Below are positions 115-5,653 of a stretch of DNA of 64,000 nucleotides, piece by piece. This DNA comes from an uncultured cyanobacterium. Lineage in GTDB: Bacteria; Cyanobacteriota; Cyanobacteriia; Cyanobacteriales; CAWUOF01. The DNA lies in contig CAVUSO010000001.1 in NCBI GenBank assembly GCA_963744145.1, positions 3,136,001 through 3,200,000 of the forward strand. Direction: 5' to 3'. The first letter of the stretch is position 1; every line of letters begins with the position of its first letter. The notes beneath the pieces are model-generated. The model had not been told where the DNA came from, made no database searches, and saw nothing but the letters and a program-made list of their open reading frames with translations. The position numbers were made by a program, and so were the translations under genes.

Positions 115-315
115 ATGGTGCATATTCGCTTTGAAGGACATTCCTACGATTTGACAGAAGCGGAACTAGGAATTACAGTCAACATGAACGAAACTACCAT
201 TAAAGAAAGTCTCGCTCAACATCTTGATGTGAATCGCGATCGCTTATCAAAATACGTTTTGGATCGACGTCCTAGTGGTGATTTAATTATCCGTCCTGAA
301 GCAGTTTATGGGTAA
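115..315 (+). CDS. Small beta-grasp (ubiquitin/ThiS/MoaD-like) protein, 66 aa, C-terminal Gly
   Basis: ATG at 115 after GGAGGTGAGG RBS. Predicted beta-beta-alpha-beta-beta pattern. Ends [10 protein letters not shown] (compare MoaD/SAMP-like IIPPVxGG). ThiF/E1 in the same operon. Confidence 0.6.
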
Positions 316-368
316 TATAATTATCCTCTATACCCAGAGATAAAGCTTACAGATATTGACCAGATTTT

Positions 369-499
369 TCACTTCGCGCCCTGACAAAAAAAGCTTACAT
401 ACTAGCCGAATTGGTACAGGCACTTGAATTCTAAATCAAGCGATTGCAGGTTCAAATCCTGCGTATAAGCAAACAGCTTTTTTAACTTGCGTGAAGTGA
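369..499 (+). ncRNA. tRNA-like structured RNA enclosed in a long closing stem (Y RNA-like candidate)
   Basis: D arm GCC405-407/GGC419-421 with GG loop. Stem CTTGA/TCAAG 423-440 with 8-nt loop. T arm GCAGG-TTCAAAT-CCTGC 446-462. Bulged acceptor GCTTA(CA)TAC/GTATAAGC. Outer stem TCACTTCGCGC 369-379 / GCGTGAAGTGA 489-499, followed by a T-run. Directly upstream of a Ro60-like gene. Confidence 0.7.
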
Positions 500-526
500 T
501 TTTTTTTGGGGTAAAGTGTCAATAAT

Positions 527-615
527 GGCAGTTAAGTCGCACCCTCATCGGTAAAGCTAATCTAGCTTGATCACCAACTTGTGCGGAGATCTATCATTTG
601 TGTGCGAAAACTGCC
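527..615 (+). ncRNA. Second structured RNA candidate (Y RNA-like, or 5' leader of the vWA gene)
   Basis: GGCAGTT 527-533 pairs with AACTGCC 609-615. TCGCAC 537-542 pairs with GTGCGA 602-607. Inner hairpin AAGCTA-ATC-TAGCTT. Confidence 0.45.
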
Positions 616-652
616 TCCTGAAAACTCCACAATCAAGGGGAGGTAGTCAAAA

Positions 653-2086
653 ATGAATATACTTGAACGCGATTTACGGATCGAAATGCTCAATAGTCTG
701 TTGACTACACCACATCGAGAATTAGGTAAAGTCACAGAAATTCATAAATTGATCATCGAACTTGATCCGCTGTTCTATGGACATTTAGCAGTTTGGTATC
801 AGCGTCATGGTGATGTACGGGATCATCAAGAAGTATTTTTAGCACATTTACTAACCAGTTCTCTATCTGAACATCGTGATGCTGGGTTTATGATGCTACA
901 AGAATTGCCACCTTATCAGGTAGCTCGCATTGTAGACTTGATGAAACAGCAACGTCAAAAATTTCCCCGTTCTGCTCGCACTGCGGTGATCCGCTATCTC
1001 AAAACTCGGGAAAAAAATCCAGAGTTTTTCGATCGCGCTGCACTCCGGGGACGGAAAGCAATGAAGCATCTTTATGCGAGTTTGCATATTAAACCAAATG
1101 AGCGTGCTGATGCAATCCTATTTAAGGATAATCCTCCGGAAAATAGTCTTGCTTATGTAGTCAAGCAACTGGTAAAAGCTCCAACTCCCCAGCAACAAGC
1201 AGAAATAATTGTTGCTCATAATATCCCTTATCCCATTGCGATCGGTACAATTAAGCTATTGACACCAGTAGTCTTAGTAGCATTAATTAATTCCATGTCA
1301 CCCCAGGAGGTAATTAATAATCTCAAATCCTTAAAAGAACGGGGAGCAATGGATCATCCCGAAGTCAAAAAACTGATCGATAGCAAATTAGAACTAGCAG
1401 CAAAAAGCGATCGGGTATCTGCGTATAAAGCTCAAGTTGCTGGAAATCAAGTTCAATTAGATCCAGAAACCACAGCGAAGTTAGAACAGGTAACTAACGA
1501 ACAAGTCAAGAAACGAGGAACAATTAGAAAAGCTACTGCTTTATTGATCGACAAATCTGGTTCAATGGAACAAGCGATCGAAGTTGGTAAACATCTGGCT
1601 GCATTAATTTCGGGGATCACGATCGCTGAACTATTTGTCTATGCTTTTGATACAATGCCTTATGTAGTGCAAGCTAATGGTAAGGAAGTGAGTGATTGGG
1701 AAAAAGCTTTCCAACATATCAAAGCAGATGGAGGGACAAGTTGTGGTTGTACCTTAGAAATAATGCGACGGAAAAAGCAGTTGGTGGAACAGATTATCTT
1801 AGTCACAGATGAAGGTGAAAATACTCAACCTTATTTTGCGGAAGCTTATCATACCTATTCCCATGATTTGACCACCATAGCTGATGTGATCATTGTCAAA
1901 GTTGGGTCAATCACTAATTGGTTGGAAAATCAACTTAAGCAAAAACAAATCCCTTATGAAACTTTCACCTTTACCGGAGACTACTACTCGCTCCCCAATC
2001 TAGTTCCTTTAATCACTCGTCCTTCTCGACTAGACTTGTTAATGGAAATTATGGCTCTACCATTACCTGTACGAGATGATAAATAG
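653..2086 (+). CDS. Ro60/TROVE-like helical domain plus C-terminal vWA (MIDAS) protein
   Basis: MIDAS DKSGSM...GGTS...TDEGEN. Helical basic N-terminus with [11 protein letters not shown], similar to the Ro/TROVE DPxFxxxLAxY segment. KptA and a tRNA-like RNA are adjacent. Confidence 0.7.
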
Positions 2087-3974: not shown

Positions 3975-3995
3975 TTAAGATTGTAGGTAAGCATT

Positions 3996-4832
3996 ATGCT
4001 TAAGATTGAGCAGTTACTTCACCAAATTGCTACCCAAGAAAAAGAATTTTGTGCTACCCAATTTCTAGCTCCATCAGTGGTCGGAGGAAAGGTGCGATCG
4101 CGAGTATCAGGTCTGATCTATACTTTTACAATTAAACCCCAGCAATTTACTGGTTGGGGAATATTTCAACCTCTGAATTCTACCGTAGCTGAGTTGGTTA
4201 CTGAAGCAGATTTACCCCAGATTGCTGAATATATGCAATATATGTCACCCATGCGTTTTTGGTTAGCTTATGCTTTACAAAAAAACACTTGGCTCGCATA
4301 TCCAATTAATGAATCTGATGCTCAACAACGTTTTGGTATTACTAAACCAGTTCCGATCCATTTAGTCAGTAATGGTGCAGTTTTTGAACAAATTATTGCC
4401 CGATGGGATGGAGGTAATTGGTGGTTTGAAGATTATGATCGTCGAGCTGATCCTTTTTTATCAGAAAACCTGACAACCGCTTTAAAAGAAATTACTCTAC
4501 CAGCTAAACTTCGGTTTAAAGGAATGACACCAGAAATGAAAATAGTTTATCAGTTGGTAACCCAGCAACAAGCAGAATTTAAAGCCAAAATGGAGTTACA
4601 AACTGATGCAGAAAAACTTGCTCAAGCATTAAAATTAGGTGGAGGAGAATTACAAAAATTTCGCGATCGCGATGATTACTGGGTCGTAGAGTGGACTACT
4701 GGATATGGAGAACATCATACCAGTGCGATCGCTAAAAGTGACCTAACTGTAATCAGTGCAGGAATTTGTCTAAGTGGACTAGATCGAGATTTTGATTTAT
4801 CATCTTTAGTGGGTGTCGTGGAATCTCGATAG
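3996..4832 (+). CDS. Hypothetical protein with a C-terminal E2/UBC-like GICL cysteine motif
   Basis: 278-aa ORF in the operon. C-terminal SAGICLSGLDRDFDLSSLV. The E2 assignment is an inference. Confidence 0.55.
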   Translation: MLKIEQLLHQIATQEKEFCATQFLAPSVVGGKVRSRVSGLIYTFTIKPQQFTGWGIFQPLNSTVAELVTEADLPQIAEYMQYMSPMRFWLAYALQKNTWLAYPINESDAQQRFGITKPVPIHLVSNGAVFEQIIARWDGGNWWFEDYDRRADPFLSENLTTALKEITLPAKLRFKGMTPEMKIVYQLVTQQQAEFKAKMELQTDAEKLAQALKLGGGELQKFRDRDDYWVVEWTTGYGEHHTSAIAKSDLTVISAGICLSGLDRDFDLSSLVGVVESR

Positions 4833-4844
4833 CTGGTGATCATC

Positions 4845-4978
4845 CAATACGGTTCAGTTAAGGATATTTTGGGAGATCTGGTGAGAAGAAGGGTGAAGCA
4901 TTCGGATATAATATTATTCGTTTAAGTGATAAATTATCGCCCGAATGCTTCACCCCTACAGTTAACTTAACTATATTG
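4845..4978. mobile_element. MITE, 134 bp, with 10-bp target-site duplication
   Basis: TIRs CAATACGGTTCAGTTAA / TTAACTTAACTATATTG. Flanking GGTGATCATC at 4835-4844 and 4979-4988. Internal palindrome GGGTGAAGCATTCGG...CCGAATGCTTCACCC. Confidence 0.85.
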
Positions 4979-5017
4979 GGTGATCATCTGGTTTTGTTCC
5001 CTCAATAATTAAAGTAA

Positions 5018-5653
5018 ATGTCTATATTCTTCCATGAACAACTCTATCGAACTCAACCAGTCATGGTGCAATTAACAAATTTTGCTGTGACTGTTTGTGG
5101 TGCTGGTGCGATCGGAGCTAACCTGACCGAAAGTTTAGCTCGATCGGGTTTAGCAAAATTAAAAGTAATTGATCGCGATCGCATTGAAGAACGTAATTTG
5201 TCAACTCAACCTTATTATCGAGCTGATGTTGGTGCTTGCAAAGCCAAAATATTAGCTCATCATCTTTATCGTGCTTTAGGAGTAAAAATTGAGGGTCAAT
5301 CTCAAGAATTAACTCCTAAAAATGTCAAAGAATTATTAAAAAATAGTGACTTAGTTATTGATTCCTTTGATAATAGTATCGGACGTCAAATAGTTAAAGA
5401 TTATTGTTTAGCAGCAAATCTTCCTTGTTTGCACATCGGATTAGCTAGTGACTATGGGGAAATTATCTGGAACAATTCTTATCGCGTTCCTTCTGGAGCT
5501 AATGATGATATTTGTGATTATCCATTAGCGAGAAATTTAGTCATGCTTACCGTTGCGATCGCAGCTGAAGTAATTATTAAGTTTATTGCTACTGGTAAAC
5601 AAGAGAGTTTTACTATTACCTTAGCAGATTTTGGGATTCAACAGTTTCATTAA
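5018..5653 (+). CDS. ThiF/MoeB/E1-like adenylyltransferase
   Basis: GAGAIG, DRDRIEERNLSTQ, K-A-K, DSFDN motifs. Lacks the CxxC Zn pairs. Single Cys in DDICDY. Confidence 0.9.
   Translation: MSIFFHEQLYRTQPVMVQLTNFAVTVCGAGAIGANLTESLARSGLAKLKVIDRDRIEERNLSTQPYYRADVGACKAKILAHHLYRALGVKIEGQSQELTPKNVKELLKNSDLVIDSFDNSIGRQIVKDYCLAANLPCLHIGLASDYGEIIWNNSYRVPSGANDDICDYPLARNLVMLTVAIAAEVIIKFIATGKQESFTITLADFGIQQFH

Follow-up and report, generated by a model that had tools for sequence, protein, structure and literature searches.

A conserved cassette joining a candidate Ro60-like protein and tRNA-like RNAs to an E1-type enzyme and a cysteine-bearing OB-fold protein in cyanobacteria, plasmids and a huge phage

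Results

Gene content of the locus

We analysed a stretch of 64,000 nucleotides (hereafter, the window) from an uncultured cyanobacterium (GenBank assembly GCA_963744145.1, contig CAVUSO010000001.1, positions 3,136,001 to 3,200,000 of the forward strand), and here describe a cluster of genes and small RNAs at its positions 115-5653. The first gene (115-315, + strand) is an open reading frame (ORF) for a 66-residue protein with the C-terminus IRPEAVYG, denoted Ubl66, which is a candidate ubiquitin-like (Ubl) or sulfur-carrier-like protein. It is followed by a tRNA-like small RNA (368-500, +), a short and weak second RNA candidate (534-592, +), and the gene for vWA477 (653-2086, +), a 477-residue protein with a vWA domain (VWA_2, E = 0.0049) that is a candidate divergent Ro60/TROVE-type RNA-binding protein. 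Next come two accessory genes, one for a KptA/Tpt1 RNA 2'-phosphotransferase (a 197-residue ORF at 2131-2724, +) and a frameshifted one for an AAA ATPase (2768-3974, +; PF00004, E = 2.5 × 10−13). The last two genes encode X278 (3996-4832, +), a 278-residue protein with the motif GICLSG and an OB/S1-like modelled fold, and ThiF211 (5018-5653, +), a short, 211-residue ThiF/E1-type adenylyltransferase (PF00899, E = 5 × 10−27). A reading of this DNA from its letters alone (hereafter, the sequence-only reading) had described these genes as one co-oriented cluster, and all the genes and RNAs listed here are indeed on the + strand, at the positions that it gave. The conserved core has five parts, namely Ubl66, the tRNA-like RNAs, vWA477, X278 and ThiF211, whereas KptA and the AAA ATPase are optional cargo outside this core.

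Conservation in cyanobacteria, plasmids and a phage

Scanning one genome per species, we identified relatives of X278 in 519 genomes, and all locus counts below refer to the best 80 of these 519; the named loci are nearly all cyanobacterial and mostly from filamentous forms, about half are from Microcoleus, and because many of the loci are close kin the counts are not independent. Searches of the 80 loci with the window proteins (tblastn) yielded matches to ThiF211 in 65 loci, to vWA477 in 49, to Ubl66 in 38, to KptA in 11 and to the AAA ATPase in 11, on one strand and in one order throughout. Neighbour frequencies were calculated for loci whose flanking DNA reaches at least 7.5 kb upstream (57 loci) or at least 2.5 kb downstream (68 loci). 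ThiF is located downstream of X278 in 59 of the 68 loci, and upstream of X278 we found vWA in 41 of the 57 loci, Ubl66 in 36, and KptA and the AAA ATPase in 7 each. The sequence-only reading had proposed a neighbourhood survey as a check on the co-occurrence of ThiF, the GICL protein and the vWA gene, and these frequencies bear it out. The Microcoleus genome CP031705.1 has two X278-ThiF pairs (loci L006 and L032), one of them within a full cassette and the second with no vWA or Ubl66 within 8 kb.

In 50,697 phage records, vWA477 matched two records (tblastn) and X278 a single one, the uncultured phage LR756511.1 (595 kb), in which the vWA homologue is 47.6% identical over 99% of the query. The phage locus (L081) keeps the cassette order, with identities to the window proteins of 36% for Ubl66, 48% for vWA, 33% for X278 and 48.6% for ThiF. 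Its Ubl66 relative has 78 residues and ends in RPDAIFG, its X278 relative carries GICLAG..D..FDLQSLVG, and its DNA contains two full-length matches (79.1 and 71.6 bits) to R1, the RNA covariance model described below. Between the X278 and ThiF relatives (L081 16694-17170) lies a gene for a Prok-JAB peptidase (PF14464, 32.6 bits vs. a cut-off of 25) that contains HTHPNFSAHYSGRD. Neither the 64-kb window nor the 80 loci yielded a JAB in a tblastn search with the phage JAB, which was the sole check. The sequence-only reading had found the lack of a JAB consistent with a terminal Gly that is already exposed on translation; this explanation is weakened because the phage copy has both the exposed Gly and a JAB. 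Downstream of the phage cassette are 14 tRNA genes (L081 21211-24919), and tRNA gene arrays also lie within a few kb of the cassette in two Phormidium loci (L055 13054-16755 and L071 12461-16383) and on a Leptolyngbya plasmid (L070 183-937); the four arrays range from 5 to 14 genes.

X278 also matched two plasmid records. Plasmid pAfl69 of Dolichospermum carries Ubl66, a tRNA-like gene, vWA, X278 and ThiF, with a HEPN gene on the opposite strand between them, and the Leptolyngbya plasmid (L070) has the same cassette order. On pAfl69, the gene at L083 10771-11061 is an HNH endonuclease gene that is tabled as a predicted lincosamide nucleotidyltransferase, so that the two names conflict. The retention of gene order in a virus at 33-49% identity argues that the cassette is one functional unit, and the earlier view of the cluster as such a unit is supported by the recurrence of the order in other genomes, plasmids and the phage.

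A family of tRNA-like and stem-sharing RNAs

The RNA at 368-500 includes a match to the Rfam tRNA family (399-466, 38.9 bits, threshold 29), and the Rfam scan returned no other family at E ≤ 1. ARAGORN calls a tRNA at 396-470 with an 8-nt anticodon loop ('tcta'). The fold of the whole RNA has a z-score of −3.95, and its 3' end lies 153 nt upstream of the vWA477 gene on the same strand. To characterize the conserved structure, we built an alignment from 41 tRNA-like elements and the DNA on either side of them, and specified 40 base pairs. From the outside to the inside, the conserved unit of about 130 nt consists of a basal helix P1 (10 bp, CACUUCGCGC paired to GCGCGAAGUG), an internal loop, a second helix P2 (9 bp), and an acceptor stem (7 bp) that opens into a cloverleaf with D, anticodon and T arms in the normal tRNA order; in the window, P1 is followed on its 3' side by a U run. 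Standard pairs fill 96.8% of the cells of the 40-pair structure, compared to 31-57% in controls with the partners shifted by 1-3 columns. Compensatory change is also evident, with 15 of the 40 pairs varying on both sides vs. a mean of 7.8 in shuffled alignments, none of which reached 15 (0/500). The covarying RNAs thus make up a new family, which is represented several times in a locus.

A decoding tRNA was considered for 368-500 and rejected. The anticodon arm is the most variable part of the RNA, and orthologous copies carry more than 10 different anticodons, some in odd-sized loops that ARAGORN reads as 2- or 4-letter anticodons; the acceptor stem is buried in 19 further base pairs. Because the anticodons differ among orthologous positions, the loop size is odd and the acceptor stem is buried, we conclude that the RNA is not a decoding tRNA.

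The covariance model R1, built from the 41-copy alignment, scores the window RNA at 121.8 bits and finds 165 matches at E ≤ 0.001 in the 80 loci and the window, of which 47, in 40 loci and the window, score at least 112 bits. A strong match is present in every locus that bears Ubl66 (38/38). Many loci contain, in addition, between two and six full-length matches of lower score (28-63 bits, 75-195 nt) that retain only the basal helices and differ in the middle. Arrays of two to six such stem-sharing RNAs are found, for example, at L024 456-1439, L034 886-1854 and L023 713-1491, as well as in many other loci. By their sequences, the arrays look like a family with a shared stem and exchangeable heads, in which the shared basal helix and internal loop would presumably form a protein-binding site. 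A shorter class, of about 85 nt, directly precedes the vWA gene in 16 other loci for which positions were compared. The candidate at 534-592 aligns with this class and shares just the basal helix and the internal-loop motif with 368-500; on its own, it is not significant (R1 score 9.0 bits, E = 0.3 in 6 kb). Of the two structured intergenic RNAs claimed originally, the one at 368-500 stands firm, and the other is a weak relative that does not reach significance alone. A simple scan of positions 1-700 for promoters and terminators found no terminator, and promoter-like sites were no more common than in shuffled sequences.

X278, an OB-fold protein with an invariant cysteine

Neither X278 nor Ubl66 matches any family in Pfam, NCBIfam or PADLOC; a sequence search of the PDB with X278 gave no match, and a search of the Atlas gave no usable one. 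There are, nevertheless, 1020 relatives of X278 at E ≤ 0.001 among 1624 candidates, and the family comprises 908 clusters at the same threshold in a library clustered at 50% identity. In 117 diverse sequences (identities down to 28%), the sole invariant residues are P26 and C258, the latter within the near-invariant motif GICLSG..D..FDL.SLVG that spans residues 256-273 of 278.

A model of X278 based on the deep alignment of these 117 relatives has a predicted local distance difference test score (pLDDT) of 95.9 and a predicted template modelling score (pTM) of 0.83. It replaced a first model that was built from 30 close relatives and discarded, its pLDDT being 59.7 and its Foldseek matches meaningless. 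The modelled chain starts with a long helix and continues through two beta-barrels and a helical stretch to a small third barrel, after which come Cys258 and the final helix. When this model was compared to the PDB with Foldseek, the matches were RNase II (E = 8.2 × 10−4), exosome Csl4, ribosomal protein S1 domains and the cold-shock domains of Unr, together with RNase R, Dis3L2 and the coiled-coil-plus-OB N-domains of proteasomal ATPases. The TM-scores on the query are low (0.15-0.27), as is expected of multi-domain matches. Matches in BFVD were to S1-motif proteins, LEF-3 and minor tail proteins. With the whole X278 as the query, no UBC/E2 protein appeared in the top 50 for either the PDB or BFVD. 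X278, with its C-terminal Cys motif, had been taken for the E2 of a conjugation cascade; membership in the E2/UBC family was abandoned in view of the OB/S1-type folds and the Foldseek lists free of UBC proteins. The predicted fold leads us to interpret X278 as an OB-fold protein that would bind RNA and have a reactive cysteine; it might carry a thioester on Cys258 without being an E2-family member.

ThiF211 and its modelled complex with Ubl66

Among solved structures in the PDB, the best relative of ThiF211 is Uba4 (E = 4 × 10−13), alongside MccB, followed by TcdA (E = 2.5 × 10−7), ThiF, MoeB and Cap2; alignment to E. coli ThiF with hhalign gave a probability of 95% over residues 18-165. ThiF211 scores below every NCBIfam cut-off for ThiF/MoeB. 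The nucleotide loop GxGxxG (GAGAIG, residues 28-33) and the metal site DxxDN (DSFDN, residues 115-119) are both present, and the pattern D..DN.... (DTFDNS..R in the loci) occurs in 64 of the 65 ThiF locus copies. Residues 60-64 read NLSTQ, with an Arg two residues ahead of the Asn (EERNL). Cys166 is invariant and located in the crossover-loop region, which we infer to be near the position of Cys184 in E. coli ThiF.

Ubl66 has 519 relatives; of the 120 listed, all end in Gly and 119 in PEAVYG. The copies in the cyanobacterial loci end in AVYG without exception (37/37), and the phage copy ends in AIFG. The conservation of the terminal Gly, on which the idea of an activated C-terminus depended, is thus upheld in all three sets. 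Two of these 120 bear the UniRef name 'TGS domain-containing protein', TGS being an RNA-binding domain with a beta-grasp fold.

Modelling ThiF211 together with Ubl66 gave an ipSAE of 0.75 (median of three runs) vs. 0.00 for the best control. Of 157 solved complexes, 116 reach the mark that this value passes, as do 2 of 215 mismatched pairs; this calibration holds only roughly here, where our own alignments were used. At least 97% of the contacts are shared between the three runs, and the partner has a pLDDT of at least 88. In the model, the tail of Ubl66 (residues 60-66) contacts ThiF211 residues 28, 30-33, 116-120 and 123, that is, the nucleotide loop and the metal site, and a strand of Ubl66 (residues 3-10; chain pLDDT 89) pairs with ThiF211 residues 199-204. 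The pair can therefore be modelled like ThiF-ThiS, the binding itself being a prediction, and the proposal that the ThiF/E1 enzyme acts on the 66-residue protein gains support from the placement of the tail in the adenylation site.

vWA477, a candidate Ro60-like protein

The N-terminal part of vWA477, about 290 residues, has no Pfam family and precedes a C-terminal vWA domain. The metal-ion-dependent adhesion site (MIDAS) motif DKSGSM occupies residues 300-305, and D300, S302 and S304 are invariant in 26 family sequences, among which Pfam assigns VWA_CoxE to 25, VWA_2 to 25 and vWA_Ro60 to 3. The single sequence of vWA477 weakly matches the Ro60 structures of the Thermus phage phiLo (9l5y/9kop, E = 0.087), in a collinear alignment that crosses from the last portion of TROVE into the beginning of the vWA domain. 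By language-model features, TROVE is annotated on 18 of the 30 nearest Atlas clusters (scores 0.94-0.97); in 16 of these 18, TROVE is found on 75-98% of the members, along with vWA_Ro60, and in the other two on 10%. Scoring of 8000 candidates identified 3135 relatives at E ≤ 0.001, and the top 120, the window's own entry apart, are 71-77% identical to vWA477 and named 'vWA domain-containing' or 'hypothetical'. Taken together, vWA477 is likely, although unproven, to be Ro60-like, and we infer that it would serve as a Ro-like scaffold that binds the shared RNA stem.

A variable slot with RNA-repair and toxin genes

The slot between the vWA gene and X278 differs strongly in gene content among the loci. 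In the window it holds KptA (PF01885, E = 2.6 × 10−52, 177.8 bits; NF002014, 271 bits, which exceeds the equivalog cut-off of 239) and the AAA ATPase gene. As the family matches begin at residue 14-18 of the KptA ORF, the GTG at 2131 is probably not its true start. The AAA gene is split into ORFs of 74 residues (2768-2992) and 343 residues (2943-3974), and the intact protein found elsewhere, a single ORF of 402 residues (L004, L055), aligns to both frames, with the first ~70 residues in the frame of 2768-2992 and the rest in that of 2943-3974. The break, near 2968-2975, corresponds to one extra base compared to the intact relative, and could reflect either an error of assembly or a real mutation, which would make the gene a pseudogene. 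KptA and the AAA ATPase had been counted as parts of the system; with 7 of the 57 loci each and a broken AAA gene in the window, neither retains that place.

Elsewhere, the RNA-end-healing and related genes of the slot include, besides KptA and the AAA ATPase, those for an RNA ligase with an OB domain (L017) and NUDIX proteins; a PolyA_pol-head (CCA-adding-like) nucleotidyltransferase, RNase_T, NADAR, DUF4291, DUF6847, DUF6939, a SAM methyltransferase and NfeD are also found. Toxin and mobile genes comprise PemK/MazF, YoeB with Phd/YefM, HEPN, Uma2, XisH/XisI and an IS110 transposase, with RNase-type toxins at L018 5922-6299, L021 4961-5251, L030 5063-5389 and L083 820-1188. Judged by these sequences, the company that the slot genes keep is one of RNA damage and repair, and the RNA-repair theme of the sequence-only reading persists in the KptA, RNA ligase, NUDIX, CCA-adding-like, RNase T and NADAR genes. 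Neither the window nor the phage locus has a copy of F3, F15, F23, DUF924, DUF6847, RNase T or RNA ligase, which are accessory families of other loci.

Other features of the loci

In the window, X278 and ThiF are separated by 185 nt, most of which is a long imperfect inverted repeat of about 155 nt (4835-4988) with a fold of −60.2 kcal/mol and a z-score of −5.3, the arms of which match only each other in a search within the window. In other loci the gap at this place can be very small, for example 7 nt in L015 and 16 nt in several Microcoleus loci. The hairpin had been a candidate for the second RNA of the cassette and was dropped because the X278-ThiF spacing varies and the hairpin resembles an inserted inverted repeat; it is probably an inserted element outside the conserved cassette.

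Downstream of ThiF, the window has an Hpt-domain gene (5917-6792) where a DUF924 gene is located in 40 of the 80 loci (L030 10259-10831 and 39 others); the window has no copy of the latter. In Microcoleus-type loci, the cassette is accompanied by three more conserved ORF families with no Pfam match above threshold, represented in L030 at 2772-3233, 6917-7258 and 1620-1829: one of ~150 residues upstream of the vWA gene in 34 loci, one of ~113 residues downstream of the vWA gene in 39 of 49, and one of ~66 residues upstream of Ubl66 in 30. One of them has a sub-threshold match to PIF1 (E = 0.00095), and none of the three occurs in the window or in the phage locus.

Discussion

Relation to Ro60 particles and RNA repair operons

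The combination of features described above points to a particle like that of Ro60 and Y RNA, joined to a Ubl or sulfur-carrier module that works without an E2; tested features of YrlA, of a canonical tRNA, of E2/UBC proteins and of Bil/Bub/CBASS operons are lacking, and those of ThiF (one motif excepted), KptA and vWA are present. The systems with which we compared module and RNA are the bacterial YrlA/YrlB RNAs and the Ro60 of phage phiLo with its Yrl1/Yrl2 (PMC4201824, PMC12135203, PMC7824862; each available in part). The likeness to Ro60 (Rsr)/Y RNA extends to the size of the vWA477 proteins (~480-500 residues) and their C-terminal vWA/MIDAS domain, to the small RNA(s) encoded just upstream on the same strand, to the pairing of the 5' and 3' RNA ends in a long stem, to the tRNA-like domain of one RNA, and to the ties with RNA-repair genes and phages. 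Y RNAs, as described in the available passages, likewise have a shared stem with varied heads and are encoded by the protein gene (PMC4201824, PMC12135203). The RNAs differ, however, in detail. In YrlA, the tRNA-like domain is permuted, in the order T arm, closed acceptor-like stem, D arm, the anticodon side joins the Ro-binding stem, and the motif GNCGAAN0-1G is found near the 5' end (PMC4201824, in the portion available). The cassette RNA has the unpermuted order D arm, anticodon arm, T arm, and its acceptor stem runs into the long stem; its 5' strand reads CACUUCGCGCCC, without GNCGAAN0-1G, whereas CGAA occurs in the 3' strand, with the consensus GCGCGAAGUG, the window reading UGAA (GCGUGAAGUG). 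Unlike in Ro60, moreover, Pfam does not detect TROVE in the vWA477 family, and those passages of the Ro60 literature that were at hand name no Ubl or ThiF partner.

The slot resembles the RNA repair operons (Rsr-YrlA-RtcB-RtcA, Pnkp-Hen1) in that modular RNA-end-healing cargo, here KptA, RNA ligase, nucleotidyltransferase, exonuclease, methyltransferase and NfeD, surrounds a scaffold and its cognate RNA. The RNA-repair survey by Burroughs and Aravind in 2016 reportedly includes Rot/TROVE and Band-7 scaffolds with cognate RNAs. In contrast to those operons, the constant partners in the cassette are ThiF, X278 and Ubl66 rather than RtcB, and, of the slots scanned, L017 alone has a ligase.

A proposed function

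The window holds one copy of a mobile cassette of two modules, and we propose that this cassette encodes a Ro-like RNA surveillance or repair particle coupled to an E2-less module for Ubl or sulfur-carrier activation; for this combined reading we estimate a probability of about 0.5. Module A would be a Ro60-like ribonucleoprotein of vWA477, the small RNA(s) and Ubl66, the RNAs sharing the basal helix and internal loop and bearing a tRNA-like or other head. Module B would consist of X278, as an OB-fold RNA-binding protein with its invariant Cys, and the short ThiF/E1 enzyme. In the first step, as the complex model suggests, ThiF211 would bind Ubl66 and adenylate its terminal Gly66; the activated carboxyl may then move to a cysteine, either Cys166 of ThiF211 or Cys258 of X278, and from there onward, with a protein or an RNA held by the Ro-like particle as the end point; alternatively, it may become a thiocarboxylate for RNA thiolation. 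By analogy with the archaeal SAMP/UbaA and the Thermus TtuB/TtuC systems, both of which activate a Ubl without a canonical E2, no such E2 need take part. The slot between the modules would supply RNA-end-healing enzymes (in the window, KptA and the broken AAA gene) or RNase toxins, and given this cargo the job would be the surveillance, repair or protection of damaged tRNA-like RNAs. Cells could use the cassette under stress or attack, and the huge phage could use it beside its own tRNA array.

Several observations weigh against this proposal. The best 80 of the 519 loci are dominated by Microcoleus, and their counts, as stated above, are not independent. In 16 of the 57 loci, X278 is present, mostly with ThiF, but with no vWA or Ubl66 within 8 kb; conversely, 9 of the 68 loci have no ThiF, and two of these (L055 and L071) retain Ubl66 and vWA, so that the two modules are separable. 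An RNA ligase occurs in only one scanned slot (L017), most loci being without one. The Arg of the NLxRQ motif is generally conserved across E1 enzymes (MoeB, ThiF, Uba1, TcdA), and NLSTQ replaces it in the window ThiF211 and in 64 of the 65 locus copies, with NLNTQ in the phage. Ubl66 is a beta-grasp candidate only: its profile had no match in Pfam or the PDB, and hhalign against E. coli ThiS gave 0.4%. The score of the ThiF211-Ubl66 complex may reflect its likeness to the ThiF-ThiS and MoeB-MoaD structures, because such E1-carrier complexes have been solved. Finally, of the 'TROVE-like/vWA' label given to vWA477 from its letters, the vWA part holds (25 of 26 family members), but Pfam finds TROVE (PF05731) in none of the 26, even at E ≤ 10, and a search of the PDB with the family profile found no match.

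Alternative explanations

A tentative alternative is that ThiF211 and X278 attach Ubl66 directly to an RNA end or to an RNA-bound protein. X278 would then serve as an RNA-reading, non-UBC 'E2', damaged or foreign RNA would be presented by the Ro-like protein with its RNAs, or these would act as decoys, and hosts and the huge phage would both deploy the system in a contest over tRNA integrity.

Just as tentatively, the module could be a sulfur relay in which no protein is tagged: Ubl66 would be a carrier of the ThiS/TtuB/Urm1 type, adenylated by ThiF211, and a persulfide on Cys258 of X278 or Cys166 of ThiF would convert it to a thiocarboxylate, from which sulfur would be passed on to a uridine, either in the tRNA-like RNAs or in damaged tRNAs. 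TtuB/TtuC and Urm1/Uba4 are precedents, and several E2-less Ubl or sulfur-carrier systems serve tRNA thiolation. The pairing of a small Gly-ended protein with a ThiF-family enzyme, in the absence of a UBC E2, is indeed what the cassette has in common with ThiS-ThiF, MoaD-MoeB, TtuB-TtuC, Urm1-Uba4 and SAMP-UbaA, and to this are added the 95% hhalign probability to ThiF and the predicted docking of the tail in the active site. The best solved relative of ThiF211, Uba4, is the activator of Urm1 for tRNA thiolation, no E2 fold was found, the terminal Gly of Ubl66 is invariant, the tRNA-like RNAs adjoin Ubl66, and X278 is a predicted RNA binder with one invariant Cys. However, Pfam scans of the cassette genes revealed no rhodanese, cysteine desulfurase or PP-loop thiolase (of the TtuA/Ncs6 type). 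Compared to the known carrier systems, ThiF211 itself has no rhodanese domain and reads NLSTQ. CxxC zinc-site motifs, a feature of E. coli ThiF, are not apparent in ThiF211. Ubl66 shows no detectable sequence tie to ThiS and ends in YG or FG rather than GG, and the partners in the cassette (a Ro-like protein, the small RNAs and X278 with its OB folds and Cys) are not those of the known carriers. The phage copy, in addition, carries a JAB peptidase, although JAB is found in some sulfur-carrier operons as well, according to the accessible part of a survey of prokaryotic Ubl operons (PMC1779556).

We consider it unlikely that the cassette is an antiviral Ubl-E1-E2 cascade of the Bil type, as the sequence-only reading had it, in which X278 would be the E2, Ubl66 would be held as a thioester on Cys258 and then tag a protein, and the AAA ATPase would act as a remodeller. 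The invariance of Cys258 in the 117 diverse relatives, the adjacency of X278 and ThiF in 59 of the 68 loci, the modelled docking of Ubl66 on ThiF211 and the JAB of the phage copy are all compatible with such a cascade, and the C-terminal part of X278 is modelled as a helix, four strands, the Cys and a helix, an order also found in UBC folds. The cassette further shares with Bil, Bub, CBASS Cap2/Cap3 and operon types 6a-6e of Iyer et al. (2006) an E1-type enzyme and a Gly-ended small protein. In contrast to Bil, Bub and CBASS, there is no UBC-fold E2, the Foldseek lists for X278 being led by OB/S1 folds, and tblastn found no JAB in the window or the 80 loci. The PADLOC E1-E2 models match the ThiF domain (E = 1.9 × 10−15 and weaker) and leave X278, Ubl66 and vWA477 unmatched; beyond this generic E1 domain and weak AAA matches, nothing in PADLOC fits, and the assignment to Bil-type defence falls accordingly short. 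The AAA ATPase is present in just 7 of 57 loci and frameshifted in the window, and because the cassette is found in a phage as well as in hosts, a purely antiviral role does not suit it.

It is quite improbable that Ubl66 is a mere RNA-binding, TGS-like beta-grasp protein while ThiF211 and X278 act directly on RNA in the manner of TcdA, a ThiF-family enzyme that activates a carboxyl group on t6A37 of tRNA. The TGS name on two Ubl66 relatives, the presence of TcdA among the solved relatives of ThiF211 and the RNA-binding folds predicted for X278 would fit this view, as would the fact that Ubl66 travels with the RNA (38/38 loci) and vWA477, whereas 16 of 57 loci have X278, alone or with ThiF, in their absence. 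On the other hand, the terminal Gly is invariant, the tail of Ubl66 is modelled in the nucleotide site of ThiF, the phage copy has a JAB, and the RNAs, the anticodon loops of which differ in sequence and size, offer no constant substrate at position 37.

Finally, we regard as very improbable the view that the cassette is not one system and that an unrelated Ro-like particle and ThiF pair are merely juxtaposed in a recombination hotspot with mobile cargo, which would accord with the highly variable slot and its toxin-antitoxin, Uma2, XisH/XisI and IS110 transposase genes, with the separate occurrence of the modules and with the supply of most loci by one genus, but not with the same order of four proteins and RNA in a phage (33-49% identity) and two plasmids, nor with the modelled docking of Ubl66 from module A on ThiF from module B.

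Significance

A link between Ro-like RNA quality control and ubiquitin-like chemistry is not described in the literature that we searched. Within the parts available, the jumbo-phage survey PMC7824862 reports TROVE proteins with a tRNA-like partner and contains no occurrence of 'ThiF', 'JAB' or 'E1-like', and the 2006 survey of prokaryotic Ubl operons (PMC1779556) contains none of 'vWA' or 'AAA'. A term search of the available text of the NAD-ADPr survey PMC9503650 did not recover the gene combination either, and no description of it was found in the full texts covered, which exclude supplements, so that a prior mention is possible.

Both the Ro60-Y RNA particles and the Ubl-E1 modules of prokaryotes are investigated as forerunners of eukaryotic systems, and the cassette offers a testable handle on the role of a Ro-like particle in bacteria and on how a Ubl without an E2 chooses its target. 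X278 provides a confidently predicted fold for a previously unnamed protein family of about 900 clusters. The cassette is spread over hundreds of cyanobacterial species, judging by the 519 genomes with X278 relatives, as well as plasmids and a 595-kb phage in which it lies by a tRNA array, and should its target prove to be RNA or a protein bound to tRNA, the cassette would be relevant to the tRNA-centred conflict between phages and their hosts.

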